Of a DNA stretch of 64,000 nucleotides, positions 6,092-29,744 are shown one piece after another. The DNA comes from a candidate division WWE3 bacterium. GTDB taxonomy: Bacteria; Patescibacteriota; WWE3; JAUXAW01. Position numbers and translations under genes: made by a program. The stretch spans positions 3,195-67,194 of the forward strand of contig JAUXAW010000001.1 of NCBI GenBank assembly GCA_030619715.1. Direction: 5' to 3'. Numbering within the stretch: position 1 is the stretch's first letter; each line of letters opens with the position of its first letter. A model generated the notes under the pieces. The model searched no databases. It worked only from the letters and a program-made list of their open reading frames with translations, and was not told the DNA's origin.

Positions 6092-6094
6092 GCT

Positions 6095-9658: not shown

Positions 9659-9671
9659 CAAAACTATTCTA

Positions 9672-11630: not shown

Positions 11631-12746
11631 TCAATTCAGTAACTTAACGACTTCGTCTGCGATGTTGTCTGCCGCATCCAACCGCACTAACTTCTGCGCC
11701 TTCTTTCCCCCTTCCCGATATTTTTCCAAATTGGACAAAAGTATATCACTATGTAGTAGTATACTTTTGGCAGATAAATCTTTTTCCTCAAGAATAATCG
11801 CCGAACCGGTGTCGACGAGAAGCTGGGCGTTTTTGCGCTGTTCGTCGTGGGAAACCCAGGGAATAGGAATCAAAATCGCCGGCTTTCCCAATGCGGCCAA
11901 TTCGTAAACAATATTCGCTCCCGCCCGGCTGACAACCAAATCGGCGGCGGCAAAAACAGCACCGATTTCCTCCTCACCAAAAAAATCTTGCAACAAGTAA
12001 CACGATCGTAGCTCCGCGCTAAGAGCTGAGCGCTGAGCGCTAAGCGCTTCGTAATCATCGAAGACCGTTGACCTCCCACACTGATGAATAACGTTATATT
12101 TCTCCAACAACTGCGGCAACGCTCCTTTCACCGCTTCGTTAATCACATGCGAACCTTGTTTTCCTCCAGTAATGTAAATTGTTGATAGTTGATTGTTGAT
12201 TGCTAATTGTTTTTTTACTTCGAAAATTGCAGGCCTGAGAGGATTACCGGTTACGGCAATTTTATCCCTCGGGAAATACTTTAAGGACTCTTCCCAACTG
12301 ACAAAGATTTTCTTTGCGAACTTAGAAACAAGCCGGTTCGCCCATCCCCCTTCAACCGTCTGCTCGTGCGTCACCGAGGGAATTCCCAAAAACCAGCCGG
12401 CTATCACCACCGGAGGAGCAAGATAGCCTCCGAAGCTGACAATCAAATGGGGTCGGATTTTCAAAAGATAACAAAAGGCCTGCAGAAAGCCGAACGGCAA
12501 GCGAATCAATTTTAGTGGGTGAAAAGTCCTGTAAAGCTTACCGGCCTTAAGGTCATAAAAAGGAATCCCCCGCCCGGTCACCTCCTGATATTCGGCGCTG
12601 ACATTCTTATCTCCCCACATGGAGAACTTGTGACCGATCCAACAAAAATTGGAAATTGGAAATTGGAAATTGGAAATTAGAGAATCGATGACAGCCAAGG
12701 CGGGCGTATGGTGACCACCAATAAAAACAATCCTAACGTCTTTCAT
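11631..12746 (-). CDS. murG: UDP-GlcNAc:undecaprenyl-PP-MurNAc-pentapeptide GlcNAc transferase MurG.
   Basis: N-terminal IVFIGGHHTPALAV. GGKQGSHVINEAV. The GT28 C-terminal domain is present. Confidence 0.9.
   Translation of the reverse strand: MKDVRIVFIGGHHTPALAVIDSLISNFQFPISNFCWIGHKFSMWGDKNVSAEYQEVTGRGIPFYDLKAGKLYRTFHPLKLIRLPFGFLQAFCYLLKIRPHLIVSFGGYLAPPVVIAGWFLGIPSVTHEQTVEGGWANRLVSKFAKKIFVSWEESLKYFPRDKIAVTGNPLRPAIFEVKKQLAINNQLSTIYITGGKQGSHVINEAVKGALPQLLEKYNVIHQCGRSTVFDDYEALSAQRSALSAELRSCYLLQDFFGEEEIGAVFAAADLVVSRAGANIVYELAALGKPAILIPIPWVSHDEQRKNAQLLVDTGSAIILEEKDLSAKSILLHSDILLSNLEKYREGGKKAQKLVRLDAADNIADEVVKLLN
12651..12678. repeat. Heptanucleotide tandem repeat (GGAAATT)x4 inside murG, in frame.
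   Basis: ggaaattggaaattggaaattggaaatt. It encodes ISNFQFPISNF in an N-terminal MurG loop. Confidence 0.9.
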
Positions 12747-13870
12747 TTTGAACTCCTGACCGTATAACGGCTAACCGAAAGAAGCAGCCCCATGGCCATC
12801 ATCATAAAAATCATCGACGAGCCGCCGTAAGAAATTAAAGGCAGGGGAATTCCCGTCAGCGGCAGCAAAGCCGTCATCGCCGCCAGATTGACTAGAACTT
12901 GAATTGCCAACCACGAAGCAACACCAGTCGCAACCAATTTTCCCAAATCATCAGGTGCCTCCCGTGCCACGGCAAAACTTTTAAAAATCAAAAAAGCAAA
13001 CGCCGCCACCACCGCCACCGTCCCCACAAAACCCAACTCCTCCCCGACGACGGCAAAAATTGAATCGGTTGTCACCTCCGGAAGATACTCGTACTTCTGG
13101 CGAGACTGACCAAATCCCAAACCAAAGGCCCCACCAGAACCAATCGCCATCAAAATTTGCTGGATATGATACCCACCGGAAAGAGGATCGGCCGCCGCGG
13201 GATCAAGATAAGTTTGCAGGCGCTGCATTCGATAAGGCGAGTTAATAATAAACAAAATCCCCAAAATTCCCAAACCTAATCCGAGAGGCAACAGCTTGAG
13301 GATGCTAACACCGGAGACAAAATAAATACAGAGTCCAATTGCGGCAATAACCATTGCTGTCCCGTAGTCGGGCTGGAGGACAACCAGACCACAAAGAACT
13401 GCCAAGAGAAAAAGAAACGACGAAAACCTCTGCTTTTTCTTGGCAAACCAAGCCGAAAGATAAAGAATAAAACTAAACTTGGCCAATTCCGACGGCTGGA
13501 AGCCCATCCCCCCCGGAAGGTAAATCCATCTTCGAGCACCATAAACTTTGGGAATAAACGCCTCAAAAACTGCTGGTAAAAATCGGGCTATCACCGTCAG
13601 GAGCAAGAAAAAAAGACTTAAGGCAAAAATAGTAAAGCTAAGCTTTGAAAGACGCTGGTAGCCTAGCTTGTAGACGAAAAACGCCGCAAGCGTCCCCAAA
13701 AGAACCCAGAGCGATTGGAGGATTAAAAAATGGTATTTTCCTCCAAAAACCTCGTGGGCATAAACGACCGAGGCATCGTAGACCATAATGACACCGAAGA
13801 TGAGGAGCAAGATGACTCCGATCAAGAGTGAGATATCTGGGGAGTGGGAAGTCTGTTTGAGACGAGGCAT
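12743..13870 (-). CDS. ftsW: SEDS-family peptidoglycan polymerase FtsW/RodA.
   Basis: 10-TM SEDS protein. Position in the dcw cluster. Confidence 0.85.
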   Translation of the reverse strand: MPRLKQTSHSPDISLLIGVILLLIFGVIMVYDASVVYAHEVFGGKYHFLILQSLWVLLGTLAAFFVYKLGYQRLSKLSFTIFALSLFFLLLTVIARFLPAVFEAFIPKVYGARRWIYLPGGMGFQPSELAKFSFILYLSAWFAKKKQRFSSFLFLLAVLCGLVVLQPDYGTAMVIAAIGLCIYFVSGVSILKLLPLGLGLGILGILFIINSPYRMQRLQTYLDPAAADPLSGGYHIQQILMAIGSGGAFGLGFGQSRQKYEYLPEVTTDSIFAVVGEELGFVGTVAVVAAFAFLIFKSFAVAREAPDDLGKLVATGVASWLAIQVLVNLAAMTALLPLTGIPLPLISYGGSSMIFMMMAMGLLLSVSRYTVRSSK

Positions 13871-13975
13871 AGAAAATTTCTAATTTCTAATATCTAATTT
13901 CTAAAATTTTCGACATTGGGAATTGGACATTTGACATTTTATTAGGAATTAGTAATTAGGAATTAGACATTATAG
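13871..13975. repeat. Repeat-rich AT-rich intergenic spacer (TTTCTAA and GGAATTRG units).
   Basis: atttctaatttctaatatctaatttctaa ... gggaattggacatttgacatt ... aggaattagtaattaggaattag. Confidence 0.7.
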
Positions 13976-15070
13976 CTACAACAGTGCCACCAAAACACCG
14001 GCAAATGCTAAGACTGCACCAGCTAACCAAAGACGCATTGTGACCTTGGTCTCCGGCCAGCTGAGCATCTCAAAATGATGGTGAAGTGGCGCCATCTTAA
14101 AGACCCGACCCCGACCCATTTTGACCGAGGCAACTTGGATAAGCACCGAAAGAACCTCGGCCACAAAAACGCCGCCAACTATTAAAAGACTTAACTCCCG
14201 TCGCAGCATCATTGCTATTACGGCGAGAGTCATCCCCAAGGACAGCGAGCCGACATCGGCCATTTCAAAACGAGCCGGATGAATATTGAAGTAAAGAAAC
14301 GACAGCAAAGTTCCCACAACAGTGGCGCAAAAATAGCCAATCTGATTGTAGCCTAAAGCTAAACTAATAACCATATAGGCGGTAAAAGCCATCGCCAAAA
14401 GACCGCCGGCGAGCCCGTCCATCCCATCGGTTAAATTGACGGCGTTGGCCATTCCCGCCAACATCAAAACAACGAGGGGAATATAAAAAATTCCGATGTC
14501 AAAAGTTCCCAAAAACGGCAGCCAAAGTTCGTGCCAATCCAGTTTGAAGTACATCCACCAGGCGGCGACCAAACCGATGGCTACCTGAATGAGAAACTTT
14601 TCCCAGGGCTTAAAACCGGAGGTTGGGTAGCTACCCAGAGCCCGAAAAATTTCCTTAAAAGCGTTCCAGGGCAGAAGTAAAATGTTATAGATGTTCCAGG
14701 TGAAGCCGGACAAGGTAACAATCGGTGTAACTCCCCCCCGCACCGTGTCCGAAAGTTTGGCGTGACCAAAAATGTTTAAAAGATCGTCGATGCCGCCAAA
14801 GATGCCTGCTATAGCCAAACAGAAAAGAGGTAGACAAGTTTGCGCTCGCGAGAGATTAAAGACAAGAGTGATGGCAATGGTGGTCAGTACCATCAACAGG
14901 CCGCCCATGATCGGGGTCCCCAACTTGACCCGCCGCGCCTCAATTTTCTCTTCAACCTCCTGCCTGATTCGTCGACGAACGTTACACTTGTACAAAAATT
15001 TGATCAACAGCGGCGCCCAGGCAAAACTCACTATTAACGATCCCAAAAGAAAAACCAACGCTTTAATCAT
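13976..15070 (-). CDS. mraY: Phospho-N-acetylmuramoyl-pentapeptide transferase MraY.
   Basis: NAVNLTDGMDGLAGG motif. Polytopic membrane protein. The track start at 15094 overlaps murF; the internal Met at 15070 is more likely. Confidence 0.9.
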   Translation of the reverse strand: MIKALVFLLGSLIVSFAWAPLLIKFLYKCNVRRRIRQEVEEKIEARRVKLGTPIMGGLLMVLTTIAITLVFNLSRAQTCLPLFCLAIAGIFGGIDDLLNIFGHAKLSDTVRGGVTPIVTLSGFTWNIYNILLLPWNAFKEIFRALGSYPTSGFKPWEKFLIQVAIGLVAAWWMYFKLDWHELWLPFLGTFDIGIFYIPLVVLMLAGMANAVNLTDGMDGLAGGLLAMAFTAYMVISLALGYNQIGYFCATVVGTLLSFLYFNIHPARFEMADVGSLSLGMTLAVIAMMLRRELSLLIVGGVFVAEVLSVLIQVASVKMGRGRVFKMAPLHHHFEMLSWPETKVTMRLWLAGAVLAFAGVLVALL

Positions 15071-16302
15071 TGTTTCCAACGCACGTCCTGACAAACAAGA
15101 AGTTCCGCGACACGTGATGGATCCTTCAAAAGCTTTTCGACGATTTTCTCCATCCTCATTCCCCGCGAGCCTTTGACTAGGATTATATCACCTTTCTTAG
15201 GCTTAATTAAATCCACAATCGATTTCGATGCTTCCTCGGAATTTTCAAAACGATGATACTGCGCAGTATTAGAGTGGAAAGATTCACCGACCGTGATTAG
15301 AACATCAGCGTCCGACTCGGTAACCATCTGCCCGACCAAACGGTGGCCATTTTCTTCAAAATCACCCAACTCGAGCATATCCCCGAGGACCGCGATTCTT
15401 CTCTTCGCCGAAAAATTTTTTAGAACTTTGAGGGCGGCGGCGGCCGATTTTGGTGAGGAATTATAGCTGTCGTCCAAAATTTTTGCGCCGTTGATACCAC
15501 CCAAGAGATTTAGACGACCTCTGAGAGGCTTAAGCTTTTTCAAACCACGATTAATCTCGACCGTAGACAAACCGCAAACCTTCCCCACGGCCGCCGCCGC
15601 TAGTGCATTATAAATTACATGCTCTCCCAAAAGGGGAATTTGGGCCTTAATTATCTCTGGCCGGACATCAGCCCTTGGGTTTTTCCCGTACCAGACAATC
15701 GGACTTTTACATTTTTTCTCCAACGAGCGTACATTTTCATCGTCCCAATTTAAAACCGCCGCCCCCGACGGTGGAAGTGCTTCCAGTAGTTCTCCCTTGG
15801 CTTTGATAATATTTTCCAAAGTACCGAGCTTCTCCATGTGCGTTGGATTGATAAAAGTAACAACGCCGATTCGTGGCTTAATGATCTTGCAGGTTTCTCT
15901 AATCTCTCCCAATCGGTCCATCCCCACCTCAACAACTAATTTCTGGTGAGATTTTTTGAGGTTGTTCACAATTTCAATTGAGAGTCCCAAAGCGGTATTC
16001 AGAGTCTCGGCGGATTTTAAAACCTTAAATTTCTGTGCTAAAACGGTGGTAATGGCTTCTTTGGTTGAAGTTTTCGCCGTCGAACCGGTAATGGCAATTA
16101 CTTCGGGGTTGACTTTCTTTAAACGCTTTTTAGCAGTTTCGTAAAGCTCCTCTTCTTCCAAAACTCCCTTCGCTCCCTTCTTCAACGCCTCGTCAATAAA
16201 CTTGTGCCCGTCGTACTTCTCCCCCTTGACGGCGACAAAATATTCCCCCTTTTTAATCAACCTCGAATCCTGACAAACTTTCATAACATCTAAAGATGTC
16301 AC
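15067..16302 (-). CDS. murF: UDP-MurNAc-tripeptide--D-Ala-D-Ala ligase MurF (Mur ligase).
   Basis: ITGSTAKTSTKE P-loop. N-terminus DSRLIKKGEYFVAVKGEKYDGHKF. Four bp overlap with murA. Confidence 0.8.
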   Translation of the reverse strand: MTSLDVMKVCQDSRLIKKGEYFVAVKGEKYDGHKFIDEALKKGAKGVLEEEELYETAKKRLKKVNPEVIAITGSTAKTSTKEAITTVLAQKFKVLKSAETLNTALGLSIEIVNNLKKSHQKLVVEVGMDRLGEIRETCKIIKPRIGVVTFINPTHMEKLGTLENIIKAKGELLEALPPSGAAVLNWDDENVRSLEKKCKSPIVWYGKNPRADVRPEIIKAQIPLLGEHVIYNALAAAAVGKVCGLSTVEINRGLKKLKPLRGRLNLLGGINGAKILDDSYNSSPKSAAAALKVLKNFSAKRRIAVLGDMLELGDFEENGHRLVGQMVTESDADVLITVGESFHSNTAQYHRFENSEEASKSIVDLIKPKKGDIILVKGSRGMRMEKIVEKLLKDPSRVAELLVCQDVRWKQ

Positions 16303-17645
16303 TCCAATTCTGCCCGCTCGATTTTGGCACCGAGGTTACGGAGCTTTTCGTCGAAATTTTCGTAGCCGCGGTCAATGTGTTCGACGCCAGAGGTTTCGCT
16401 TTGACCCTCGGCGGCGAGGGCGGCTAAAATCAAGGTGGCACCAGCACGAAGGTCTGGAATCGCCAACCGCGAACCGAAAAGAGATGTTGGTCCGTGAACC
16501 CTCGCGAGAACTTTAGGTTCTCTATCTCCCTCCAACCACTCAAAGCCGTATCTTCCGGGATCAAAAGCTATTCCTGCTTCGGAAGGAGTCAAGACCTCAA
16601 TCTTCGCTCCCGCCTTTAACAGCTCGTCGACGAAAGAAAAACGATTCTCAAAAATAGTTTCGTGAGCCAAGCTTACTCCATTGGCTTGGGCTAAAAGAAT
16701 GCAAAAGGGCTGAATCCAATCCGTCATAAACCCGGGGTGGGGGACAGATTCCACGTCAACCGGCTCCAGCGCCGTGCCCTCTTCTAACCAAACCCGAAGG
16801 GTCTGTTTCTGAATGTCAAAACCAACGCCCATTTTTTCCAGCTTGGCCAAAAAAGCGGTTAGGTCCAGGGGCCGAACGTCGGTCAGCGTTACATCTCCCC
16901 TGGTTGCCGCGGCGGCAACGGCAAAAGTAACCGCCTCATTGCGATCAGGCAAAATCCGGTGACGCGCCCCCGCAAGCTCCCGCACCCCCTCAACCACAAT
17001 CCTTCTTGATTCACTTTCATCCCTCTTAATCCTCGCTCCCATTTTGACCAAAAGCACAATCAAATCATCAACCTCCGGCTCCTCGGCGGCATTCGTGATC
17101 ACCGTTTCGCCCTCGGCTAAAACCGACGCCAAAATTGCATTCTCCGTTCCCATTACCGTGTTTTTATCAAAATTAATCTCTGCCCCCTTCAGTCGCGGCA
17201 CCGAAATTTTGTAAACCCCACCCTTATGAGAGACTACTGCTCCCAGTTTTTCCAAAACCATCAGATGACGGTCGATGGGGCGCAAACCGATGCGGCAACC
17301 GCCGGGCTCGGGAATCGTTACCTCACCAAAACGAGCCAAAAGAGGGCCAATAGTTATTACCGAGCTTCGTGATTTTACCCCCAAACTGTGGGGAACTTCC
17401 GAGGAGAAAACTTCGTCGGCCCGCAAACCAAGAGTGTGCTCATCGAGGAACTCCGTCTTAACTCCCAAATTCTCAACGATTTCAACAATCACTCCCACAT
17501 CATCAATCCGCGGAATATTTTCTAAAACTACTTCATCAGAGGTCAAAAGCGAAGCCGCCACCATCTTGATCGCAGCGTTCTTGGCACCTGATATTTGAAC
17601 TTGACCCTTGAGGGGAATACCACCCTCAATTAAAAATTTCTGCAT
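16299..17645 (-). CDS. murA: UDP-N-acetylglucosamine 1-carboxyvinyltransferase MurA.
   Basis: QISGAKNAAIKM. Catalytic Cys in the GGCRIGLRPIDRH loop. Confidence 0.9.
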   Translation of the reverse strand: MQKFLIEGGIPLKGQVQISGAKNAAIKMVAASLLTSDEVVLENIPRIDDVGVIVEIVENLGVKTEFLDEHTLGLRADEVFSSEVPHSLGVKSRSSVITIGPLLARFGEVTIPEPGGCRIGLRPIDRHLMVLEKLGAVVSHKGGVYKISVPRLKGAEINFDKNTVMGTENAILASVLAEGETVITNAAEEPEVDDLIVLLVKMGARIKRDESESRRIVVEGVRELAGARHRILPDRNEAVTFAVAAAATRGDVTLTDVRPLDLTAFLAKLEKMGVGFDIQKQTLRVWLEEGTALEPVDVESVPHPGFMTDWIQPFCILLAQANGVSLAHETIFENRFSFVDELLKAGAKIEVLTPSEAGIAFDPGRYGFEWLEGDREPKVLARVHGPTSLFGSRLAIPDLRAGATLILAALAAEGQSETSGVEHIDRGYENFDEKLRNLGAKIERAELE

Positions 17646-19421
17646 TTATTTATCCGGCTCAATCCCGTAATAAACCGTCAACTCTTTTGTTATCTCCATC
17701 CACATCGGCACCGCCGTTTCCGCCGCGTAAATGCTAGCAGATGGCTGGCGCAACAAAACTAGCATAACAAAGTTGGGGTGGCTTGGCAAAAAGCCGACGA
17801 AGGTGGCGTTGGTCTTCGTCGGATCGTAGCGGCCCTCGACCGGAATTTGCGCCGTCCCCGTTTTCCCCGCCACCCGATGAGTTTTCAAATTATAAAATTT
17901 TGATTCCCCGCCCTCGACTGCGGCGGTCAACATCTCGACCATAATTTCCGCTGATTTCGCTGATATTACCTGAGCCAACTCTTTTGGCTTTATCCTGATT
18001 ACCCGCCCGCCCTCACGGATTTCGTTAACAACATACGGCTTCATCATCTTGCCGTCGTTGACAATCGTCGAAAAAATAGCCGCCAACTGCAGGGGGGTCA
18101 TCGAAACACCCTGACCGAACGCCGCCGTTGCCAAATCAACCGGTCGCCACTCGGAAAGCTCCTTGACAATTCCCGTGTCTTCATCCTCAAGATCAATTCC
18201 CAAAACCTCACCCAGACCAAACCTCAAAAAATAAGAGCGTAAAGTTTTCGCCCCCAACTGTTGCCCAACCCAGGCGGCACCAATGTTGTTCGAGTGCTGC
18301 AAGACCTCAATCATCGTTTCCTCACCGTGATGCTTTCCGTCCCAGGTATCAATCGTGTAACCGGAAACGGTGATTGGACCTGAATCGATCATCGTCGTCT
18401 GCGGTTCAACCGTTTTCGTGTCAATCCCGGCCGACATCATCAGCGCCTTTAATACCGACCCCGGTTCGTAAGTCTCAGAAATCGCTCCGTTTTTCCATTG
18501 CTCCGCTGATTTCGCTGATTGCTCACCTGATTCCGCTGATTCAATCTGTGCTGCAAGCTCTGTATTAAGGAATGGGTCGGACGGGTCATATGTAGGAAAG
18601 TTGGCAAGCGCCAAAATCGCCCCCGTCTGCGGCTCCACCACCACCACCGACCCGCTCTCTGCCCCGTACTTCCCCACCGCCGCCGAAAGTTTCTGCTCGA
18701 CCATAAATTGCAGTGAGCGATCAATTGTCAAAACCAAATCCCGACCATTTTCGGCCGGGATTTTTTTGTAGCCACCCAGAAGAATCGGCTGACCCGAAGC
18801 GTCTTTTTCTTCAACAATTCTTCCCGGACGACCGCGAAGGTCTCCGTTGTAAAAACCTTCCAAACCGTAATAGCCCTGGTCCTGCCCCTGCTCATCGGAA
18901 CCGACGAAGCCCAAAAGATGAGCCGCCAAACTCTCTTCCGGATAAAACCTCCTCGGCTCCTCCTCAAACCCAATTCCCTCGATTCCTAAACTTTCAATTT
19001 TCTCTTTCGTCTCGGGTAACACTTTGTGAGCCAAGGGAACCCATTGTAGGTCTTGACTTAAGGCCTCTAACAACCGTTGAGTCTCAGATTTCTTCAAGTC
19101 ATAGTCATCCAAAAGTTTTGAGTTTTGAGTTTTGAGTTTTTCTTCGACCAAGATTGCAGCAAGTAACTCTGAAGTCTTTTTGACATCCTTAACATTTGGA
19201 GGCTCACCATATACCAAATATGCTGCCTGATTTTCTACCAACGGAAAGCCGTCGTTGGAAAAAATCCGCCCCCGAGCAGCAGGAATCTCCGCATATCCCC
19301 AATGCTGTTTGGAGGCCAAGGCGGCGAACTTGTTATGCTCTACAATCTGCAGCTGGAAAAGCCGGAAGGTGATCAGGATTAAAAAGGATAAAAAAAGGAT
19401 TAAGAGGATCCTCACTCTCAT
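17646..19421 (-). CDS. ftsI: Penicillin-binding protein (FtsI/PBP2 class B transpeptidase).
   Basis: Transpeptidase motifs GSVLK (SxxK), HSNN (SxN) and KTGTA (KTG). N-terminal TM segment. Confidence 0.9.
   Translation of the reverse strand: MRVRILLILFLSFLILITFRLFQLQIVEHNKFAALASKQHWGYAEIPAARGRIFSNDGFPLVENQAAYLVYGEPPNVKDVKKTSELLAAILVEEKLKTQNSKLLDDYDLKKSETQRLLEALSQDLQWVPLAHKVLPETKEKIESLGIEGIGFEEEPRRFYPEESLAAHLLGFVGSDEQGQDQGYYGLEGFYNGDLRGRPGRIVEEKDASGQPILLGGYKKIPAENGRDLVLTIDRSLQFMVEQKLSAAVGKYGAESGSVVVVEPQTGAILALANFPTYDPSDPFLNTELAAQIESAESGEQSAKSAEQWKNGAISETYEPGSVLKALMMSAGIDTKTVEPQTTMIDSGPITVSGYTIDTWDGKHHGEETMIEVLQHSNNIGAAWVGQQLGAKTLRSYFLRFGLGEVLGIDLEDEDTGIVKELSEWRPVDLATAAFGQGVSMTPLQLAAIFSTIVNDGKMMKPYVVNEIREGGRVIRIKPKELAQVISAKSAEIMVEMLTAAVEGGESKFYNLKTHRVAGKTGTAQIPVEGRYDPTKTNATFVGFLPSHPNFVMLVLLRQPSASIYAAETAVPMWMEITKELTVYYGIEPDK
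19115..19142. repeat. Heptanucleotide tandem repeat (GTTTTGA)x4 inside ftsI, in frame.
   Basis: gttttgagttttgagttttgagttttt. It encodes EEKLKTQNSKLL. Confidence 0.9.
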
Positions 19422-19714: not shown

Positions 19715-19718
19715 ACTG

Positions 19719-21025: not shown

Positions 21026-21059
21026 AACATTATCTTACCACCAATTCCCACTAAATACC

Positions 21060-21088: not shown

Positions 21089-21116
21089 GTATCAGTTTCT
21101 CCTTTAGGTACAACTA

Positions 21117-21151: not shown

Positions 21152-21221
21152 GGGCCTGGCTTGACACCAGCTGTTTATTTTGCTACTTTATAGGTTGAAG
21201 GGGAGAAGGCTGCCTAAGGTG

Positions 21222-22589: not shown

Positions 22590-23125
22590 AATTTCTCTTG
22601 AAACTGCGGGGACTTCAATTTCTTCTCAATGATTTCCTCAATATAACCTTTTATATCTCTGCGGTCAACCTTGTCTGACCAGAAACCAAGCAACCTCAAC
22701 AACTCGATCTCGAAATTCCGAGTAGTGGCACTTAGCTCAGAGCGTTTAGCACTTAGCTCGCCAAGAGTTCCGACTAAGAGGTTAAAAACCTGACGGTTGA
22801 CTTGTCTGTCCGGTGTCAGTTGGTCAACCAGTTCAACCAAATAAAACGCTGCCGCGGTTTTCCTAAGGTCTTTTTTAAGTTTTGAAAATGAATTGACCAC
22901 CTGCGCCTCGGTGACAATATCAAGATTTCGTCCCTCGGCCAGAAACAAAACGCAGTGATTAAAGAGCTCAACATTTCCCCCTTTCCTCGAAGTAATCTTC
23001 CGAACCCCCTTAGCAATCGTTTTAATTTTGCCGTAATGCTTCGTATAGATTGTCAGAATCCGGTCCGCCTCACCATAGTTCGTTCGCTTTAAGATTACCC
23101 CTTCAGTTTTATAACTGGACATCAA
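22586..23125 (-). CDS. recO: DNA repair protein RecO (short form).
   Basis: N-terminal OB-fold region [27 protein letters not shown]...AKGVRK. Confidence 0.65.
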
Positions 23126-24953
23126 TTTCGCGGTCGGACTTCAACTCAAACCCCTCAACCTCTTTACCATTAACCTTAATGCTATACATATGCCCGTCGG
23201 TCCCGGGTTGCTTTTGAACCAGCATTTGCAAGGCCTGGCCTTTCTGGACCTTAAAAGGCAACTCGTAGGTCACCGAAACGGAGTTGGAGTTCTCTGGATA
23301 GCAATAGGTGTAAGTTGTGAAAACCGTCTTGCCTAATTCTTCAGAAGAGGTCACCGCCGTCCAAGAGCTGCTGTCAAGAAGCTTGGAGCCTTGAGGAACA
23401 TAAATCCGCATCCAATCATAATAAGTCCCGTTGAGCCAACCGTCGTGGGGTTCGGGATTGTTTAAATTGATTGTCACCGTTTTTACCACCGTTCCATCTT
23501 TTGCCACCTTGATGTCCTGAGTTACCGTTTCCTGGATATAAAGATTGGCCTTGGCTCCGGCAAAGTTACAATCGTTGATGTGAAGATAATCACCGTCAAA
23601 ATCCCTGCTTCGCCCAGCAAAATTATACTTCTCCGCCAACTTTTGCGCCTCTGGCGCATGAAGATACAAAAGAACATGCTTCTCTCCCACCGCCTGCAGT
23701 GCCGTCTCGAAAAGTGGCTTCCAACGATCGCGGGAAGCGTGGAAGGCCTTGTCCATCATGGCGTCCATTAACTCTCCCAAAAGATCCTTGCGACCGACAA
23801 TATACCGCCCCAAAAGATTGACGTAAAGTTCTAACTGATAAACAATATTCTCCGAAGAGAAGGGCTCCTCATAGCCAGAAAGCTCGACTGGGCCCAAAAC
23901 CCCCAAAATATCTTTGACAAAATAGGTGTCAATACCAATAATTCCGTCAATCCGTGGAAAATTGGAAATTTTTCCTAAAAACCACTCAAACTTTTGACAA
24001 CTCTCATAGAAGTCCGGCGAGAGGTTAGAATCGCGAATAAAAGATTCTTCGACTTTAAGATATTGGGCTAAGACCGGCGTGGGAGGAGTTCTTTCGACAA
24101 TTTTTTCGTCCAACTTATACATATCATCGGAGGTCACCGAGATGATTTTCCCGCCCTCGACCGTTATCAGCGCGTAGGCGGTCAAAAAGCCCCCCGTCGG
24201 CCGCAGCTCTTTGTCATTTTGAAAAAGAACTAAATAGGTCTTTGGAGCCAAGTCACCCAAAACCCCCGGCAGAACGGCCAAAAGCTCTTTGATATCCGGC
24301 ATACTCTCCTCTACCGTATTCATCGTTTGTTTGGCCTCAATCAAAAGCGAACGAATTGGTTGACCTCTGAACGATTGAGGATAACGTTTGGGATCAACCG
24401 TCTCCAGCTCTTGGCGAATCGCCGCAAATTCTGTGGCAACTTCATCCAGTCGAGGGGCAATCTCGGGCATCACTTTGACCAGACCCTCAATCTTCTTTTC
24501 CGCATCAAGAAAGGCCTCGGTCTCCTCGGTCTTAAACCCCAAAACATCAGCGAACGGCTCAATCGCCTCGATCAGAACATTCCCCGCGGCAACACCGTGA
24601 TGAGCAGCTCGCAGAATATGCTCAATATCTTTGTAGTAGTTACCAAAGAAGGGGACGCTTTTCGTCCAAGAGAGGGGTTTAACATCTTCCTGAATATAAC
24701 CGATAGAGTCGTCTAGACCCGCAAGATCCCGCTCAATCTTGGTTAAATCTTGCAACAAAACCCCATCTTTCAAAAGCCGTGCTTGCCACCGAACTTTTTT
24801 AACATCGGCATAAACTTTCATCCCCGGCCGAATAATGAATAGAAAACAGAAAACAATGAACAATAAACAGAAAACAGAAAACAGGGCGACTGATCGTTTG
24901 TGTTTATAAAAGAAATTTGAGATTTGAGATTTGAGATTTGAGATTTTTTTCAC
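23109..24953 (-). CDS. DUF4012 domain membrane-anchored protein (paralog A).
   Basis: Signature LVLFQNDKELRPTGGFLTAYALITV. N-terminal TM segment. GTG start immediately followed by an A7 tract and the heptamer repeat. Confidence 0.8.
   Translation of the reverse strand: MKKISNLKSQISNFFYKHKRSVALFSVFCLLFIVFCFLFIIRPGMKVYADVKKVRWQARLLKDGVLLQDLTKIERDLAGLDDSIGYIQEDVKPLSWTKSVPFFGNYYKDIEHILRAAHHGVAAGNVLIEAIEPFADVLGFKTEETEAFLDAEKKIEGLVKVMPEIAPRLDEVATEFAAIRQELETVDPKRYPQSFRGQPIRSLLIEAKQTMNTVEESMPDIKELLAVLPGVLGDLAPKTYLVLFQNDKELRPTGGFLTAYALITVEGGKIISVTSDDMYKLDEKIVERTPPTPVLAQYLKVEESFIRDSNLSPDFYESCQKFEWFLGKISNFPRIDGIIGIDTYFVKDILGVLGPVELSGYEEPFSSENIVYQLELYVNLLGRYIVGRKDLLGELMDAMMDKAFHASRDRWKPLFETALQAVGEKHVLLYLHAPEAQKLAEKYNFAGRSRDFDGDYLHINDCNFAGAKANLYIQETVTQDIKVAKDGTVVKTVTINLNNPEPHDGWLNGTYYDWMRIYVPQGSKLLDSSSWTAVTSSEELGKTVFTTYTYCYPENSNSVSVTYELPFKVQKGQALQMLVQKQPGTDGHMYSIKVNGKEVEGFELKSDREIDVQL
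24916..24950. repeat. Heptanucleotide tandem repeat (TTTGAGA)x4 followed by a T7/A7 homopolymer at the extreme 5' end of the DUF4012 gene.
   Basis: tttgagatttgagatttgagatttgagattttttt. It encodes MKKISNLKSQISN. Confidence 0.9.
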
Positions 24954-25594
24954 GCTGCTCCTCTCGCCTGCAAAACTGCCAACGGTGTTTTGAGGATAAT
25001 GTAAAAATCGTAGAGGATTGAACGGCGGTCGGCATAGGCCGCATCCATTTTAGCCCTCTCGACAAAACTAACCTCCGAGCGACCTCCAACCTGCCAAGGA
25101 CCAGTAATTCCCGGCTTAACTTTTAAGAGCCGCTCAACATACGGACGGCTCTCGGGAAAAACGCGCTGCTGGTCCCGTAACTCAAAAGGAAAATAGGCAC
25201 GCGGCCCGACCAAACTCATCTCTCCCCTCAAAACGTTGATAAACTGCGGAAACTCATCAACACTCACCCTCCGCATAAAATTCCCTCCTCCAATAATGCG
25301 GGGGTCGTTTTCCAATTTGTAGCTATTTCTCTTGTACTCCTCATAAAGTTCGGAATGTTGTAGCAGATAGGCGTGGGCGTTGGGAATCATTGAGCGAAAT
25401 TTGTACATCCGAAATTTTTTACTATCTTTGCCAAGTCTTTCGGGGATATCCGCAAACACCGGACCCGGAGAAATAAGTTTGATATAAACGGCAGTTAGGA
25501 GCATCAGGGGACTAAAGACTACCAAACCAACGATCGCACCCACGATGTCAATCAGGCGTTTGGTCTTGTCATAAAAGTCTGGTGTGTTCTTCAT
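24950..25594 (-). CDS. Polyprenyl-phosphate sugar-1-phosphate transferase (initiating phosphoglycosyltransferase, PglC/WbaP C-terminal-domain type).
   Basis: KFRSM. DEFPQFINVLRGEMSLVGPRA. PGITGPWQV. The start at 25594 has a GGAGGG RBS; the track start is 25696. Confidence 0.85.
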   Translation of the reverse strand: MKNTPDFYDKTKRLIDIVGAIVGLVVFSPLMLLTAVYIKLISPGPVFADIPERLGKDSKKFRMYKFRSMIPNAHAYLLQHSELYEEYKRNSYKLENDPRIIGGGNFMRRVSVDEFPQFINVLRGEMSLVGPRAYFPFELRDQQRVFPESRPYVERLLKVKPGITGPWQVGGRSEVSFVERAKMDAAYADRRSILYDFYIILKTPLAVLQARGAA

Positions 25595-26705
25595 AAAGGC
25601 CCTCCACAAAACCCTCAAGCTCTCTCTGGAAGCGCTTCTTACTAAATCTTGCCGCCTGCGCGTAGCAGTCTTCACTATGATACTGTGCCGTACCAAAGTG
25701 TTCGAGAGCCTTGGTTAGGGCCTCAACCGTTTGTGGATAGAAAAACTCCCCCGTTTTGCCTCCAATCACCGTTTCCAAAGCCCCACCAGCTTTAAAAGCG
25801 ATGACCGGTTTTCCCACCGCCTGTGCTTCCAGAGGCGTGATTCCGAAGTCCTCTTTCTGCGGAAAAATCAAGGCACGGCAGCCTTTATAGTAACTGACCA
25901 CCTCTTCGTCTGTCAACCGATCAAAGAGCTCGACTGTGGGTCCCGCTAATTTCTTCAGCCGTTCAAAATCTGGACCTTCGCCGATGATTTTGAGAGGAAG
26001 TTTGAGCCGGTTGCCGGCTTCGATCGCAATATCGATTTTTTTCCAGGCAGTCAGGCGAGAAACAATTAAATGGTAATCTGAATTAGCGACCGAGGGGTCC
26101 GCGAGCGGAACGTTAGGGTTCGGAGCCGATCGGAACCGATCCAAATCTACGAACGGGTAAATGATGTGCGAATCCCGACCGTAGTATTTTTTGATTCGCG
26201 CCTGCGGCGTCTTGGAGTTGGCGATAAAGTGGTCAACTCGTTGAGCAGCAGCGTAATCCCAAAGGCGGAAATAGGATAAAAAGGGATTTAAGAGGGATTT
26301 AAAGGGATAGGGAAAATTTTCAAAATAAGTTTGGGGTTCCCAAAACATTCGCGGTGGGGTATTCATATAGCAGATATGAAGCGTCTCCGGCCGTGTAATC
26401 ACCCCGTGGGCAAATCTCGTTGAAGATGACAAAACAACATCGTAACCTGTTAGATCAAAACTCTCAAAAGCAAGTGGATAGAGTGGGAAATAATGGCGGT
26501 AAAGTTTTTCCTTAAACGGCAGCTTCTGCATAAACGAAGTTTTGAGATTTGAGATTTGAGATTTCCACTGGGCGGAGGCCATGGATGTAAAAACGTCAGC
26601 TTTGGGGAACGTCTCGATCATTGCCATAAACAACCTCTCCGCTCCCCCATGTTGAATCAAATCATCATGAACCAAAGCGATTTTTATTTCAGTCATCGTC
26701 CCCAT
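25569..26705 (-). CDS. GT4-family glycosyltransferase.
   Basis: EDFGITPLEAQAVGKPVIA (E-x7-E region). Contains the in-frame heptamer repeat at 26538-26566 (KSQISNLK). Confidence 0.8.
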   Translation of the reverse strand: MGTMTEIKIALVHDDLIQHGGAERLFMAMIETFPKADVFTSMASAQWKSQISNLKTSFMQKLPFKEKLYRHYFPLYPLAFESFDLTGYDVVLSSSTRFAHGVITRPETLHICYMNTPPRMFWEPQTYFENFPYPFKSLLNPFLSYFRLWDYAAAQRVDHFIANSKTPQARIKKYYGRDSHIIYPFVDLDRFRSAPNPNVPLADPSVANSDYHLIVSRLTAWKKIDIAIEAGNRLKLPLKIIGEGPDFERLKKLAGPTVELFDRLTDEEVVSYYKGCRALIFPQKEDFGITPLEAQAVGKPVIAFKAGGALETVIGGKTGEFFYPQTVEALTKALEHFGTAQYHSEDCYAQAARFSKKRFQRELEGFVEGLYEEHTRLL

Positions 26706-26733
26706 TTTATCACACCCTATCTGTTTTCTCCCG

Positions 26734-26814
26734 TGATGTAGTGGCAGGCTTGTCTGTTACCTCCCCTCACTAAAGTGATGTAATTCCCGTACGGCCGTAC
26801 GCAATTAACATCAC
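26734..26814. promoter_or_regulatory. Operator-like element: three GTGATGT(A/T)A boxes (two direct, one inverted) around a perfect 14 bp palindrome CGTACGGCCGTACG.
   Basis: gtgatgtag (26734). gtgatgtaatt-CCCGTACGGCCGTACG-caattaacatcac (26775-26814). Confidence 0.45.
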
Positions 26815-26835
26815 TTCCCACCAACCCCCTCATAT

Positions 26836-26864
26836 TTGACAACCATCTTGTAATATGGTATAAT
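26836..26864 (+). promoter_or_regulatory. Perfect consensus promoter TTGACA-17-TATAAT (copy 2).
   Basis: TTGACA at 26836-26841, 17 nt spacer, TATAAT at 26859-26864, then TAAAGG. Confidence 0.6.
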
Positions 26865-26903
26865 TAAAGGGTGGGATGCAGTAGCGAACTTTAGTTCGCG
26901 CAT

Positions 26904-26932
26904 TTGACAAACAGAGCATTCTATGCTATAAT
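26904..26932 (+). promoter_or_regulatory. Perfect consensus promoter TTGACA-17-TATAAT (copy 3, tandem to copy 2).
   Basis: TTGACA at 26904-26909, 17 nt spacer, TATAAT at 26927-26932, then TAAGAAGG. Confidence 0.6.
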
Positions 26933-27162
26933 TAAGAAGGAAAATGGGATAAGACGATGGAGAGAGGCCCAGGAGGGCTTTTGGTAGAAGGACGCGAAAC
27001 GCTCGTTTCTTTCCATCAGAAGCCTTTAAGGTTCTTCGAAAGTCACAAAACAGAAAGTGAGGAAAATTGCTAAAATTGCGGTTAGCAGCCGCCGGAGGCT
27101 CTCAAATCCAAAACCGAGAGCTTCTGTAAAAATCCTGGCGAGATGCCAGGAAAAGGGGCAAA

Positions 27163-27426
27163 ATGTCTACTCCAACCTTGTGGAGGGAGGACTGGGGGGA
27201 GTACTCCTTCCGCCCGCCGTGTGGGCACGCCGGTGGCGGTGCAGGTGACCAAATCCCCCACGACGAGGTGGACGAGACTGGTACATGGACATGTCCTGTG
27301 TGTGGGCTGTCCATCCAGATAACAGGCTCGTCCCCCGTGCCAAGTGACAACTGGAGTGACTCCAATGATGCCCTCGTCACTTGGCCGGATGGAAGGTTAG
27401 AACTATTTGCAGTTCACGATGTCTAA
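27163..27426 (+). CDS. Small GC-rich protein with a zinc-ribbon-like CxH...CPVCG motif, 87 aa.
   Basis: ATG preceded by GGGG. A hairpin CTGGC-gagat-GCCAG lies just upstream. GC about 60%. The only plus-strand gene inside a minus-strand glycosyltransferase run. Confidence 0.45.
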   Translation: MSTPTLWREDWGEYSFRPPCGHAGGGAGDQIPHDEVDETGTWTCPVCGLSIQITGSSPVPSDNWSDSNDALVTWPDGRLELFAVHDV

Positions 27427-27464
27427 CCTCCTTAATAACCGTATTCGCCTCTTAAGGCGAGTTG

Positions 27465-27533
27465 ACACGCTTAACGTACGGTTACTTAACCAGAAATGGT
27501 TGAGGTTCCGAAAGCGTGTCTTCTTTTGTTTGT
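27465..27533 (+). terminator. Large intrinsic terminator (possibly bidirectional).
   Basis: 9 bp stem GACACGCTT/AAGCGTGTC enclosing an inner hairpin, followed by TTCTTTTGTTTG. Confidence 0.55.
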
Positions 27534-27558
27534 AAGAGGAGGATAGCAAGCAAGCTTG

Positions 27559-28599
27559 TCACTTCAAAACCGATCGGAGAACCGACAGAGTTTCGCGGGC
27601 ACACTTTTCCCAAGAAAATTTTTCCGACTGCAAAAGTCCTTTTTGAATTATTCTCTGATAATTTGAATTATCGAAGTGAAGAACTTTTTTAATTCCCTCG
27701 GCGATGCTTTCAACACCGAAAGGGTCAACATAGACAACGGCGTCACCACCAACCTCAGGCAGCGAAGAAGCGTTGGAGGTCACCACCGGAGTTCCGCAGG
27801 CCATCGCTTCCAAAACCGGGAAACCAAAACCCTCGTAATAAGACGGATAAACAAAAACCAGGGCCTTTCGATAAAGTTCGACCAAATCTTTCCGCGCCAC
27901 AAACCCCGGAAACTCCACTGTATCTTCAATACCCAACTTCCTAACTTTCGCTCTAATCATTTTAGTTTCAATTTTATCTTTATTAACAAACTGCCCTCCG
28001 GGCATTATTAATTTCAGCTTTGAGATTTGAGTTGTGGATTTGAGTTTTGAGTTTTGAGTTTTGAGATTGGCGAAAGCCTGTACGAGCCTGAGTATGTTCT
28101 TATTCACCTCCACCCCACCTACAAACAAAATATAATTTCCCCTTTCTTCTTTAGGGACAGGATCCTGCGTTCTAAACTCCTCATCAACTCCCAAATAGAC
28201 CCGATGGACGGCGTCTGCACCAACCCCCACAGATCTGACTACATCCTTCTTCGTATTATCAGAATTGACAAGAATCGCGTCAGCCTTTTTCACGCTCCGC
28301 AACTTCCATCGGTAAAGAAGTCCTTTTAAAAAATTGGCTAGGACCCCTTTTTCGGAAAAACGTTTAGTGGCCAGGGGAACAAGGTCGTGAATCATCAAAA
28401 CTCTAGGGCAAGAAACTCGCGGAAACCCGTCCCAAAAGTTGGGCTGTAGAAAAACATCCACTTTAGAAAAATCCCTCGTCTCAATCCTGACATCCGGATC
28501 AACTTTCGGCAACCACTCAATAATATGTTCGGTATAATTCCCAATCCCGCGGCCTTTATATTGATTTTTCGTTGTCCGATCATCAATGCCAATAATCAT
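27559..28599 (-). CDS. GT4-family glycosyltransferase.
   Basis: EGFGFPVLEAMACGTPVVTSNASSLPEV. Start probably MIIGIDD at 28599 (track start 28644). Contains the heptamer repeat at 28018-28072. Confidence 0.8.
   Translation of the reverse strand: MIIGIDDRTTKNQYKGRGIGNYTEHIIEWLPKVDPDVRIETRDFSKVDVFLQPNFWDGFPRVSCPRVLMIHDLVPLATKRFSEKGVLANFLKGLLYRWKLRSVKKADAILVNSDNTKKDVVRSVGVGADAVHRVYLGVDEEFRTQDPVPKEERGNYILFVGGVEVNKNILRLVQAFANLKTQNSKLKSTTQISKLKLIMPGGQFVNKDKIETKMIRAKVRKLGIEDTVEFPGFVARKDLVELYRKALVFVYPSYYEGFGFPVLEAMACGTPVVTSNASSLPEVGGDAVVYVDPFGVESIAEGIKKVLHFDNSNYQRIIQKGLLQSEKFSWEKCARETLSVLRSVLK
28018..28072. repeat. Imperfect heptanucleotide repeat tract (TTTGAGA/TTTGAGT/TGTGGAT, about 7.5 units) inside the GT4 gene.
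   Basis: tttgagatttgagttgtggatttgagttttgagttttgagttttgagatt. It encodes LKTQNSKLKSTTQISKLK. Confidence 0.85.
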
Positions 28600-29744
28600 A
28601 AAAACATTAAAGCATTTAATACCTTCTCGGCTGTTTTTTTCCAACTAAACTTTTTCGCCTGCTGCAAACCCCCTTCAATCAAATCCTGACGATCACCAGC
28701 CAGAACCTTCTCCATCGCCTCGGTAAGCTCGTCTATACTCTGAGGTTTGACCAAAATTCCCGCATCGCCTACAACCTCCGGAATTGAGGTGGTGTTGGCC
28801 GCAATTACCGGACAGCCGCAGGACATCGCCTCAAGAACCGTCAGACCGAAGCCCTCATGAAAACTGGGATGGACTAGCGCCACCGCCTCGTTCAAAATCG
28901 CCGCCACCTCCCGGTCATCCTCAATCCTTCCGGTTAAGATAACATCATTTTGTAACTTAAGTTTCTTAAGAAGATTAAGAAGATTCCGAGAGTCTTGATC
29001 CCTCCCCTTCGCATCCACCGACCCAATTAAAACCAACGTGGGATGAGAACCGATCCGCCTTTGGCGGATGAGATTAGCAAACGCCCGAAGGAGCGTTTGC
29101 AAATTCTTGTGCGGTCGAAAATTTCCCAGATAAACAAAAAATGGCTTTGAGATTCCATACTTGTCAAGGACCTGCCTGCCGGCAGGCAGGGCTTCGCTCT
29201 TGACATCACCGTCGTTGATGGGTTCGTAGGCCTCACTCGCTGCGCCGCGAATATTAATAATCCTACCCTCCTCCACCCCCAAAAATTCTTTTATGTCACT
29301 TTTCACAAACTCAGAAATGGTAAAAATTACCGCCGCTCTTTTGGCCACCAACTTCGAAACAAACACATCGTACAATCTCGCCTTCGGCGAGGCAATTTCC
29401 GGGTACCGGCGGTAAAGAAGATCGTAGATTGTCAGCGCATATTTTTCCCGCAAAAAAAGAGAAGCCCCCCAGGGAGTTGTCCAAAATAAATCTAGTTTGA
29501 GTTTTGAGATTTCCAACGGAAGCGAAAAATGCTGGTGAAAAGAATTCGGCTTTGATCTGACCACAGCGAACTCAAACTGCGGTTGATTCTCTGACCAAGC
29601 TTCCATTTTATTTCCAGGATTCCCAACGAGAACAAATGTATGACCTGACCGCAACCTTGCTAGAGCCTTAATCAGATTCTCCCGATAATTCCCGATCCCG
29701 GTCGGAAAATCCTGAATCATCCGCACATCAATTCCAATTTTCAT
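28596..29744 (-). CDS. GT4-family glycosyltransferase.
   Basis: HEGFGLTVLEAMSCGCPVIAANTTSIPEVVGDAG. Confidence 0.8.
   Translation of the reverse strand: MKIGIDVRMIQDFPTGIGNYRENLIKALARLRSGHTFVLVGNPGNKMEAWSENQPQFEFAVVRSKPNSFHQHFSLPLEISKLKLDLFWTTPWGASLFLREKYALTIYDLLYRRYPEIASPKARLYDVFVSKLVAKRAAVIFTISEFVKSDIKEFLGVEEGRIINIRGAASEAYEPINDGDVKSEALPAGRQVLDKYGISKPFFVYLGNFRPHKNLQTLLRAFANLIRQRRIGSHPTLVLIGSVDAKGRDQDSRNLLNLLKKLKLQNDVILTGRIEDDREVAAILNEAVALVHPSFHEGFGLTVLEAMSCGCPVIAANTTSIPEVVGDAGILVKPQSIDELTEAMEKVLAGDRQDLIEGGLQQAKKFSWKKTAEKVLNALMFL

Follow-up and report, generated by a model that had tools for sequence, protein, structure and literature searches.

Heptanucleotide arrays inside the genes of a WWE3 bacterium and a dispersed repeat family of CPR/Patescibacteria

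Arrays and host genes in the window

The stretch of DNA analysed here, 64,000 nt of contig JAUXAW010000001.1 (assembly GCA_030619715.1) from a candidate division WWE3 bacterium and hereafter called the window, contains tandem arrays of 7-nt units that lie for the most part inside protein-coding genes, and this report deals with the origin of these heptamer arrays. The window is approximately 94% coding and its genes are arranged in blocks, beginning with an aminoacyl-tRNA synthetase (aaRS) gene fragment, TK, dNK, a C5-methylase gene, ftsZ, PDDEXK_3, ftsA and a CSD gene, followed by a compact division and cell wall (dcw) cluster (mraZ, rsmH, ftsL-like, ftsI, murA-like, Mur ligase, mraY, ftsW, murG), then by glyS and recO, and finally by a glycan cluster that extends over about 37 kb and contains at least 20 glycosyltransferase genes. 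No transposase domain was detected among the genes of this 64-kb window, and scans of it returned no Rfam families and no tRNAs. The nearest named relatives of its MurG and FtsI proteins (approximately 50-54% identity) are assigned to candidate division WWE3 and to the 'Patescibacteria group', and closer relatives exist at 70-81% identity. A search of genome-collection contigs with FtsI recovered only distant Firmicutes, Bacteroidetes and Actinobacteria (24-33% identity) and no close species representative; these distant bacteria were used as negative controls only.

Tandem Repeats Finder (TRF) detected 12 period-7 arrays with 3.3-8.4 copies in the window, and intact open reading frames (ORFs) hold 10 of the 12. 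An earlier, sequence-only reading of this DNA had listed six coding tracts. All six are present within a few bases of the coordinates it gave, in intact minus-strand ORFs whose products were identified with Pfam as MurG, FtsI/PBP, a DUF4012 protein and three family 4 glycosyltransferases (GT4a, GT4b and GT4c); that inventory was nevertheless incomplete, as six further arrays had been overlooked (two in murG, a pair in the mraY-ftsW spacer, one in the transmembrane segment of the DUF4012 protein and one at 57809-57831). The tracts are as follows.

12016-12048, minus strand: murG array 3, sense (AGCGCTT/AGCGCTC) x4.7, residues 233-244, EALSAQRSALSA
12178-12211, minus strand: murG array 2, (CAACAAT)-like x4.9, residues 179-190, in the inter-domain linker
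12646-12678, minus strand: murG array 1, sense AATTTCC x4.7 (TRF AAATTGG, 100%), residues 23-34, ISNFQFPISNF
13875-13904 and 13941-13972, no strand assigned: inverted pair in the mraY-ftsW spacer, (AATTTCT)x4.3 and (ATTAGGA)x3.7, an AT-rich hairpin
19114-19140, minus strand: ftsI array, (CTCAAAA)x3.9 (TRF AGTTTTG, 100%), residues 94-103, KLKTQNSKL
24841-24884, minus strand: DUF4012 transmembrane array, (GTTTTCT)x6.3, encoding LFSVFCLLFIVFCFLF
24915-24946, minus strand: DUF4012 N-terminal array, (CTCAAAT)x4.6 (TRF ATTTGAG, 100%), residues 3-13, KISNLKSQISN
26541-26564, minus strand: GT4a array, (CTCAAAT)x3.4 (TRF TTTGAGA, 100%), residues 48-55, KSQISNLK
28011-28068, minus strand: GT4b array, TRF x8.4 at 78%, interrupted, peptide NLKTQNSKLKSTTQISKLKL
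28011-28065, minus strand: canonical A-rich arm of GT4b, residues 193-212
29495-29513, minus strand: GT4c short array, about 2.7 units of CTCAAAW with one mismatch, residues 78-84, EISKLKL
57809-57831, minus strand: isolated array, (CCCAAAG)x3.3, within a gene of the polysaccharide flippase family

With three or more head-to-tail units, the arrays are built like the heptanucleotide simple sequence repeats (SSR) or short tandemly repeated repetitive sequences (STRR) of other bacteria, except for the GT4c tract, which at about 2.7 units falls below that number, is absent from the TRF calls and, taken alone, is weak. They also share with these repeats an excess of period 7 over other periods and over chance. 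In a scan of 21-nt segments for at least 19 matches at lags 4-21, run against 100 Markov shuffles, lag 7 gave six segments with at least 19/21 matches in the window and none in the shuffles, and the other lags were empty except for lag 11 (one segment) and lag 14, an echo of the period-7 arrays. Perfect repeats above threshold numbered 6-8 at period 7 and 0 at periods 4-6 and 8-15, and the motif CTCAAAWCTCAAAW, allowing up to two mismatches, matched the window 18 times against 5.3 expected, a count that none of 100 shuffles reached. As to placement, the window arrays are not mostly intergenic, as those of the SSR/STRR class are; relative to a 94% coding window, the intergenic copies are about 3-fold enriched.

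The reading frame had been said to be maintained by the copy number of the units. It is indeed kept everywhere, but the copy numbers (4.7, 3.9, 4.6, 3.4) are not multiples of three: the frame is preserved through partial units and, in GT4b, through an irregular unit of 6 nt, CCACAA. On the sense strand this tract reads three times CTCAAAA, then CTCAAAT-CCACAA-CTCAAAT, CTCAAAG and CTGAAAT, the irregular 6-mer corresponding to TTGTGG at 28032-28037 of the plus strand. That the tract at the start of the DUF4012 gene is coding was confirmed by the syntenic orthologue on contig L010, which starts with ATG and reads MKKISNLK.

A 48-nt arm and its hairpin partner

The irregular unit of GT4b lies in a non-periodic core, CTCAAAW-CCACAA-CTCAAAW, which was found in four arrays: GT4b of the window, murG site 2 on contig L007, and ftsI and the mraY/ftsW spacer on contig L009. 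Contigs L007, L008, L009 and L010 belong to relatives of the window's organism, and between GT4c and ftsW L010 shows synteny with the window, the proteins sharing 69-77% identity. A 20-nt core query derived from these four instances matched at least 120 metagenome contigs; the listed matches reduce to 113 non-redundant copies, to which the statistics that follow refer. Exactly three CTCAAAW-like units lie to the left of the core in 74 of the 113 copies and exactly one unit lies to its right in 78, and beyond these units the similarity ends. The A-rich arm thus consists of three CTCAAAW units, the core and one further unit, that is 21+7+6+7+7 = 48 nt or 16 codons, and on the evidence of its sequence the GT4b tract of the window is a canonical arm.

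Approximately 33 of these copies are intergenic and combine the arm, across a loop, with a reverse-complement arm (TTTTGAG...TTGTGG...) in which TTGTGG matches the CCACAA of the A-rich arm, giving a long hairpin rich in AT; in approximately 34 others a single arm lies inside an ORF of at least 450 nt, and the remaining ones occupy short contigs or gene ends or adjoin another palindromic repeat. Many dispersed copies with a common sequence and length (on at least 120 contigs) and an inverted-repeat structure (in the two-armed copies) are features of the miniature inverted-repeat transposable elements (MITE), the repetitive extragenic palindromes and their doublets (REP, REPIN) and the Rickettsia palindromic elements (RPE). 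The two arms are 83.5% complementary in register and 50-53% when slid by one column; for these hairpins RNAalifold chose a mis-registered structure of 7 pairs, and the palindrome register was imposed instead. No target-site duplication or terminal inverted repeat was evident, the filled and empty orthologous sites being too diverged to define the junctions.

The core motif had no match in a collection of viral contigs, and thus there is no sign of carriage by phages. One contig bearing an arm in rpoB is Parcubacteria-like, which indicates that the element spans divergent CPR (Candidate Phyla Radiation) lineages. When the core was masked in the motif-bearing contigs (639 kb), 90 perfect period-7 arrays remained, against at most 16 for any other period, with units as varied as AAAAATC, AAAAGTC, AAATGTC, AAATTAG and AAATTGG. 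The close relatives of the window likewise show specificity for period 7, and no perfect period-7 arrays were found in 119 kb of unrelated bacteria.

It could be argued that the arrays are independent microsatellites produced in situ by local 7-nt slippage, their units being alike due to mutational bias and a filter for stop-free, hydrophilic peptides. Units do differ widely among arrays and among orthologues at one site, neither a mobilising enzyme nor a target duplication was found in this analysis, and a report summarising Mrazek 2007 ranks heptamers first in abundance among the long SSR classes of many bacteria and explains them by polymerase slippage (PMC4679880). Independent slippage is, however, not expected to place a non-periodic 6-mer at a fixed position, with three units to its left and one to its right, across unrelated genes and divergent CPR lineages (113 copies listed), to provide the partner arm with the matching TTGTGG or to produce a segment of 50 nt that is identical in two genes of one genome (L010, see below), and instead of the free variation in copy number of a pure microsatellite a fixed architecture is seen in about 70% of the 113 copies listed. 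This explanation is therefore disfavoured for the CTCAAAW family and was judged unlikely. The view of the sequence-only reading that the tracts are minisatellites preserving the frame in multiples of three is inexact, the best-defined ones being copies of a 48-nt arm of fixed architecture together with its in-frame deletion derivatives.

That reading had also described the tracts as a dispersed family, which is supported by the presence of the CTCAAAW arm in all three frames of unrelated housekeeping genes. Pfam confirmed as host proteins RpoB, a class I aaRS, a MiaB-like radical-SAM enzyme, a P-type ATPase, a RadA-like ATPase and a Mur ligase; further hosts were assigned to ValRS, LeuRS and topoisomerase I by visual inspection alone. 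In-frame insertion into unrelated ORFs, the hallmark of RPE, is thereby observed, and the copies are located in variable surface loops and inter-domain linkers of unrelated, often essential proteins. The three frames are used at 14:9:9 (p = 0.46, copies listed) and give the peptides LKTTTQ, SKPQLK and QNHNSK; no antisense arm was present in an ORF among the copies listed. As 7 and 3 share no common factor, all three frames of the A-rich strand are open and encode cyclic peptides rich in K/S/Q/N/T/L, and the T-rich strand is not found in ORFs because it contains TGA in every frame once three units are read. A single arm survives in ORFs because the other arm carries stops.

Two further explanations bear on this residence inside genes. 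The first considers the tracts as contingency loci in which the slippage of one unit would switch the glycan genes and the DUF4012 gene, as in neuO of Escherichia coli K1. Three GT4 genes and the extreme 5' end of the DUF4012 gene do carry tracts, the latter perfect and of 4.6 units, and AAAACTC, which encodes KLKTQNS, resembles the neuO unit AAGACTC (PMC13001214). Only the DUF4012 tract (residues 3-13, 4.6 perfect units) corresponds to a long perfect tract at the 5' end, the others being internal and short or interrupted; of the glycosyltransferase genes of the window, which number at least 20, only 3 carry tracts and at least 17 have none. Arrays are not confined to genes for surface structures or variable antigens but occur equally in murG, ftsI, rpoB and aaRS genes and in genes for a Mur ligase and a RadA-like protein. 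Nor are out-of-frame alleles common: in the raw DNA of the metagenome copies listed, 29 read through against one possible frameshift, in contrast to the approximately 66% of neuO genomes that are phase-OFF (PMC13001214), and every orthologous tract is in frame as well. The suggestion that these are contingency loci of glycan genes is not supported, and we consider a switching role quite improbable.

The second explanation, to which a slightly lower probability was given, is that the tracts are selected functional modules, useful either as peptides (flexible K/S/Q/N linkers, heptad helices) or as RNA or DNA motifs (binding sites, translational pauses). The ftsI insertion has been retained since the common ancestor of lineages with about 75% identity, a heptamer array encodes the whole transmembrane helix of the DUF4012 protein, and regulatory roles have been proposed for the heptamers of Nostoc and Beggiatoaceae (bioRxiv 10.1101/2022.06.06.494920; PMC4679880). 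Against a function stand the equal use of the three frames, by which one DNA sequence gives three unrelated peptides, the variable presence and length of the tracts among close orthologues and the lack of a common function among the host proteins. Selection for coiled coils or for a specific peptide was rejected on account of the equal use of the frames, and a G-quadruplex function, as in Xanthomonas and Nostoc, was rejected because the units have no runs of G or C.

Orthologous loci and nested mini-hairpins

The loops that hold arrays in the window also hold variable arrays in orthologues of about 75% identity, the tracts differing in presence, length and unit. The tolerance of such insertions in loops of essential proteins, which the sequence-only reading had put forward, is supported by MurG and FtsI, whose sites in relatives are empty or hold arrays of other lengths or units. 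In the AlphaFold (AF2) model of the window MurG (pLDDT 85.8), array 1 covers the end of helix 1, a loop and the start of strand 2, array 2 coincides with the inter-domain linker (coil 176-188) and array 3 with a peripheral helix-loop. At these three sites MurG homologues with 70-80% identity contain other inserts with a periodicity of 7 residues, or none (ATSYQLPATSF, RNSKFEIRKFEI, NFQFSIFNFQ and KSQISNLKSQIHNSNLK are examples; site 1 in particular holds ATSYQLPATSF, RNSKFEI..., NFQFSIFNFQ or no insert), and more distant WWE3 MurG proteins have short ordinary loops there. In the DNA of the relatives these inserts are genuine heptamer arrays with units that differ from those of the window. Site 2 has a canonical CTCAAAT arm with CCACAA in L007 and related arrays in L008 and L011; array 3 is kept in L007, with different periodic 7-residue sequences in other relatives, and the AATTTCC unit of array 1 is also present in a ValRS gene (identified by eye) on contig L061.

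Other repeats were also seen in murG. In-frame mini-hairpins of the type CCTGCC...GGCAGG are present at site 1 of L007 and in proteins P0014, P0016 and P0020 (PAGRQAG-type). A longer palindromic repeat lies in frame in the inter-domain linker of MurG in two relatives (L009, 9209-10360; protein P0023), with the peptide ...HSEERSDEESRSEIL..RYTQ..DDR and DNA of the type GTCATCCTGAACGAAGTGAAGGATC, and repeats of this type adjoin heptamer arms in metagenome contigs (L018, L031, L036, L076 and L123 among those listed).

In FtsI the site after the residues EE holds 0 to about 35 residues of similar inserts in relatives with at least 65% identity. The left junction GAR GAR | AAY CTC AAA ACT is common to the window, L009 and L010, which indicates one old insertion followed by divergence, and L009 has a full arm with CCACAA after EE|NLKTQNS, 27 nt longer than the tract of the window. 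At 18497-18542, in the transpeptidase-proximal part of ftsI (approximately residues 294-309, AESGEQSAKSAEQ), there is a direct duplication of 21 nt (7 codons) with 9-nt sub-periodicity, an in-frame repeat separate from the heptamer array.

The N-terminal tract of the DUF4012 gene is kept in L010 with a nested mini-hairpin that adds 18 nt net. The transmembrane helix of this orthologue is non-repetitive and of the same length as the one encoded by the window's array, so it seems that this array overwrote an existing segment rather than lengthening it. Three alleles were found at the GT4a site. L010 has almost no insert there, the window has the short tract, and contig L125 has a full arm with CCACAA and a nested hairpin, compared to which the tract of the window is 45 nt (27+18) shorter. 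For GT4b, L010 is 9 residues (27 nt) shorter than the arm in the window, and it has arrays at two other sites, in GT4a and GT4c, where the window has none; the contig begins downstream of the GT4c 29495-29513 site and the comparison of these orthologues starts beyond it. The 396-nt spacer upstream of GT4a contains two tandem copies of 34 nt (26834-26867 and 26902-26935), each with a promoter-like site near the consensus TTGACA-N17-TATAAT. In the mraY-ftsW spacer, inverted pairs of arrays with different units are present in all four genomes compared (window, L007, L008 and L009), and that of L009 consists of a CTCAAAW arm with CCACAA and a TTTGAG partner. The hairpin of the window folds as RNA at -14.1 kcal/mol (z = -2.9), a modest value, and is not terminator-like by the criterion of a GC-rich stem.

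These gains, losses and shared tracts among orthologues mean that the tracts are neither artefacts nor frozen, and the comparison indicates that they are long-lived and change by in-frame steps. An origin in assembly or sequencing errors might be raised given that the window comes from a metagenome-type assembly; the same arrays were found at the same codons in independent NCBI, ENA and JGI assemblies, always in intact ORFs, which leaves this explanation a negligible probability.

Mini-hairpins of approximately 18-28 nt are located inside the heptamer arrays of relatives, often at the irregular CCACAA/TTGTGG unit. One, GTCTTTTCCTYCGGAAAT, is present in the DUF4012 gene of L010 and in GT4a of L125 (net +18 nt), and another, AGCGCTTCGCTCGCTCCCTTTGGGAGGG, precedes CACAA in GT4a and GT4c of L010 (net +27 nt); GC-rich hairpins were also seen in the T-arms of L026 and L116. 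The segments formed by array and nested hairpin in GT4a and GT4c of L010 are identical over 50 nt, with ...CTCCCTTTGGGAGGGCACAA occurring twice in this contig, and this identity between two genes points to copying within the genome. When the GC-rich mini-hairpin families of the relatives were sought in the window, only one 12-nt palindrome was found. This perfect palindrome, CCTGCCGGCAGG, lies in GT4c (29175-29186) and encodes LPAGRQ, and the L010 orthologue is without 4 residues there.

Several other features of the window are recorded here. Arrays of a 9-nt unit, TTTACTGTC x4.2, are located at 6029-6103 with an inverted partner, CAGTAAAGA, forming a hairpin that straddles the stop codon of ftsZ; the reverse-complement 9-mer (x3.8) is found at 9671-9703, near the 5' end of the ORF 8924-9751, and the 9-mer array is also present in the relative L008 (11763-11796). 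A repeat of about 80-90 nt with 11-nt sub-repeats (TAATCGGGTCA, TAATCATTACC) is present three or four times at 60452-60741, in the spacer that separates the second DUF4012 gene from a Schlafen/AlbA_2-HATPase_c_4 gene. A PD-(D/E)XK (PDDEXK_3) nuclease gene lies between ftsA and ftsZ in the window (7202-7642) and in L008 (13984-14412) and is not found there in L007 and L009. The region 30000-57000 (GT2/GT4 genes, two sulfotransferases, APS kinase, epimerases and flippase) has a G+C of 0.41-0.45 vs 0.46-0.50 in the 10-30 kb region; unlike the dcw cluster and the proximal GT4 genes, which carry heptamer arrays, it shows no multi-copy heptamer array in TRF, only a 2.1-copy, 15-nt match at 52042-52056. 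This distal, array-poor part of the glycan cluster may be a more recent acquisition.

Origin of the arrays and comparison with known systems

Based on the evidence presented above, we consider it likely that the tracts derive, as in-frame copies or as remnants reduced in length, from a dispersed family of small repeats with 7-nt units that is widespread in CPR/Patescibacteria, and that they have been shaped by DNA-level copying, slippage and selection. New copies would arise by a copy process at the DNA level, for which mobilisation in trans as a MITE or REPIN, template switching and gene conversion are candidate routes. After insertion, slippage in the register of the units may expand, contract and homogenise the arrays, and purifying selection would purge copies that are out of frame, contain stops or are structurally intolerable, the peptides encoded by the arms probably being near-neutral passengers. 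The recurrent in-frame step of 27 nt equals one unit, CCACAA and two units, and slippage across the irregular 6-mer could delete these 27 nt while keeping the frame; from this we infer that the short 'pure' arrays of ftsI and GT4a are in-frame arm derivatives shorter by 27 nt.

Several observations weigh against such an origin. Only the CTCAAAW arrays are tied to a discrete element, those of murG (AATTTCC, CAACAAT, AGCGCTT) and the GTTTTCT and CCCAAAG arrays being linked to it by period, shared sites and recurrence of units only; the many different units found at MurG site 1 show that slippage and homogenisation in place are no less important than insertion. The metagenome scan was built on four observed instances, without a formal null. 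There is no covariation between the arms, the observed complementarity (83.5%) being that of shuffled columns (83.5%), and hence there is no evidence of compensatory evolution and a function of the hairpin is not demonstrated; the intergenic heptamer hairpins were not flagged by a terminator scan and do not match the classical terminator pattern. Besides, the recurrence of CCACAA need not reflect a shared ancestry of the arrays but could mark the footprint or target of a nested mini-hairpin element, and the analysis identified neither a transposase nor a target-site duplication nor terminal inverted repeats, transposase domains having been checked in the genes of the window.

More tentatively, it is possible that CPR/Patescibacteria harbour active, previously undescribed mobile DNA of very small size, comprising the arm of about 48 nt, its hairpin doublet and the mini-hairpins of about 18-28 nt that nest at CCACAA, all copied in a sequence-specific manner and writing segments of 7-16 residues into loops of essential proteins. 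The copying might be carried out by a single-strand transposase that recognises hairpins, or proceed through an RNA or template-switch route. As the arm is open in all three frames, new segments of this length would continually be added to loops of RpoB, aaRS, MurG and FtsI, and the element, if mobile, would be among the smallest known, a tractable case of repeats that create protein insertions and a lineage-wide generator of these in genomes thought to be streamlined. CPR genomes are regarded as tiny and streamlined, yet their core genes for wall synthesis, division, transcription and translation carry a selfish-looking repeat. The steps of 27 and 18 nt and the alleles found at one site (empty, short, full, nested) resemble a time series. 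On the practical side, the tracts swell the low-complexity segments of CPR proteins and are a probable cause of broken assemblies and of confusion in the alignment and phylogeny of marker genes, rpoB among them.

Heptamer repeats have been documented in Nostoc and Xanthomonas (PMC4692102), including the recF/recO regions of Nostoc (bioRxiv 10.1101/2022.06.06.494920), and in Beggiatoaceae; known units are GGGGAYT and TTCAAAA in Nostoc STRR, GGGAATC in Xanthomonas and TAACTGA in Beggiatoaceae, and 32% of the heptamers in Nostoc and 7-11% in Xanthomonas are inside ORFs (PMC4692102). In Beggiatoaceae their orientation in ORFs is limited by stop codons and copies occur at ORF ends, one of them at the end of MurG (PMC4679880). 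The arrays described here share with them a unit of 7 nt, present in 3 to about 8 copies and at many loci of a genome, the over-representation of period 7 and the presence of some copies in ORFs, and (TTCAAAA)3 of Nostoc is one base off CTCAAAA (bioRxiv 10.1101/2022.06.06.494920). They differ in their CPR/Patescibacteria host, in their A-rich units, with which no G-quadruplex is possible, in the mostly coding location of the window copies within 94% coding DNA, in an arm fixed at 48 nt that includes an irregular 6-mer and has a hairpin partner, instead of an array of free length, and in the position of the window copies in the middle of essential genes rather than at gene ends. The preference for 7-nt repeats thus extends from Nostoc, Xanthomonas and Beggiatoaceae to a fourth, very distant lineage, which argues for a general mechanism; the idea of a polymerase footprint is attributed to Mrazek 2007 in one of these reports (PMC4679880).

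RPE are found in frame in unrelated metabolic and essential genes and encode a fold-compatible peptide (PMC10969869). Like them, the repeat described here is small, dispersed, palindromic and often in frame in unrelated genes; unlike it, RPE measure about 150 bp, lack tandem heptamers, are inserted whole and belong to another host lineage, while here a single arm (up to about 48 nt) is present in ORFs. REP/REPIN are short, non-autonomous hairpin doublets mobilised by the RAYT transposase, with hundreds of copies that are mostly extragenic or at the 3' ends of genes (PMC3116915). The element resembles them in its short, dispersed, hairpin-forming doublets and differs in its AT-rich arms made of heptamer arrays and its many intragenic copies; no RAYT or transposase was found in the window, and no genome-wide search was made. 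The neuO gene of the E. coli K1 prophage CUS-3 contains an AAGACTC repeat that encodes a 7-residue repeat and keeps the frame only at multiples of three; its 3-53 perfect units lie at the 5' end of one gene and cause frequent ON/OFF switching (PMC13001214). It is likewise a coding heptanucleotide tandem repeat, AAGACTC being one base off AAAACTC, but the tracts reported here are short and interrupted, are distributed among housekeeping genes and stay in frame almost without exception.

The mini-hairpins of approximately 18-28 nt nested in the heptamer arrays of the window's relatives appear analogous to another known arrangement. Elhai et al. reportedly described, in 2008, heptamer arrays of Nostoc punctiforme with small dispersed repeats (SDR) nested inside them. 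Sequences and phylum differ between the two cases, and the window itself shows only the 12-nt palindrome at 29175-29186. The literature was searched by taxon, by concept and by literal sequence, and no published description of a heptamer element in CPR/Patescibacteria was found. Relative to the known systems, the distinguishing features are an arm-and-hairpin structure built of heptamers, its wide distribution across the CPR and its frequent occurrence midway along core genes.

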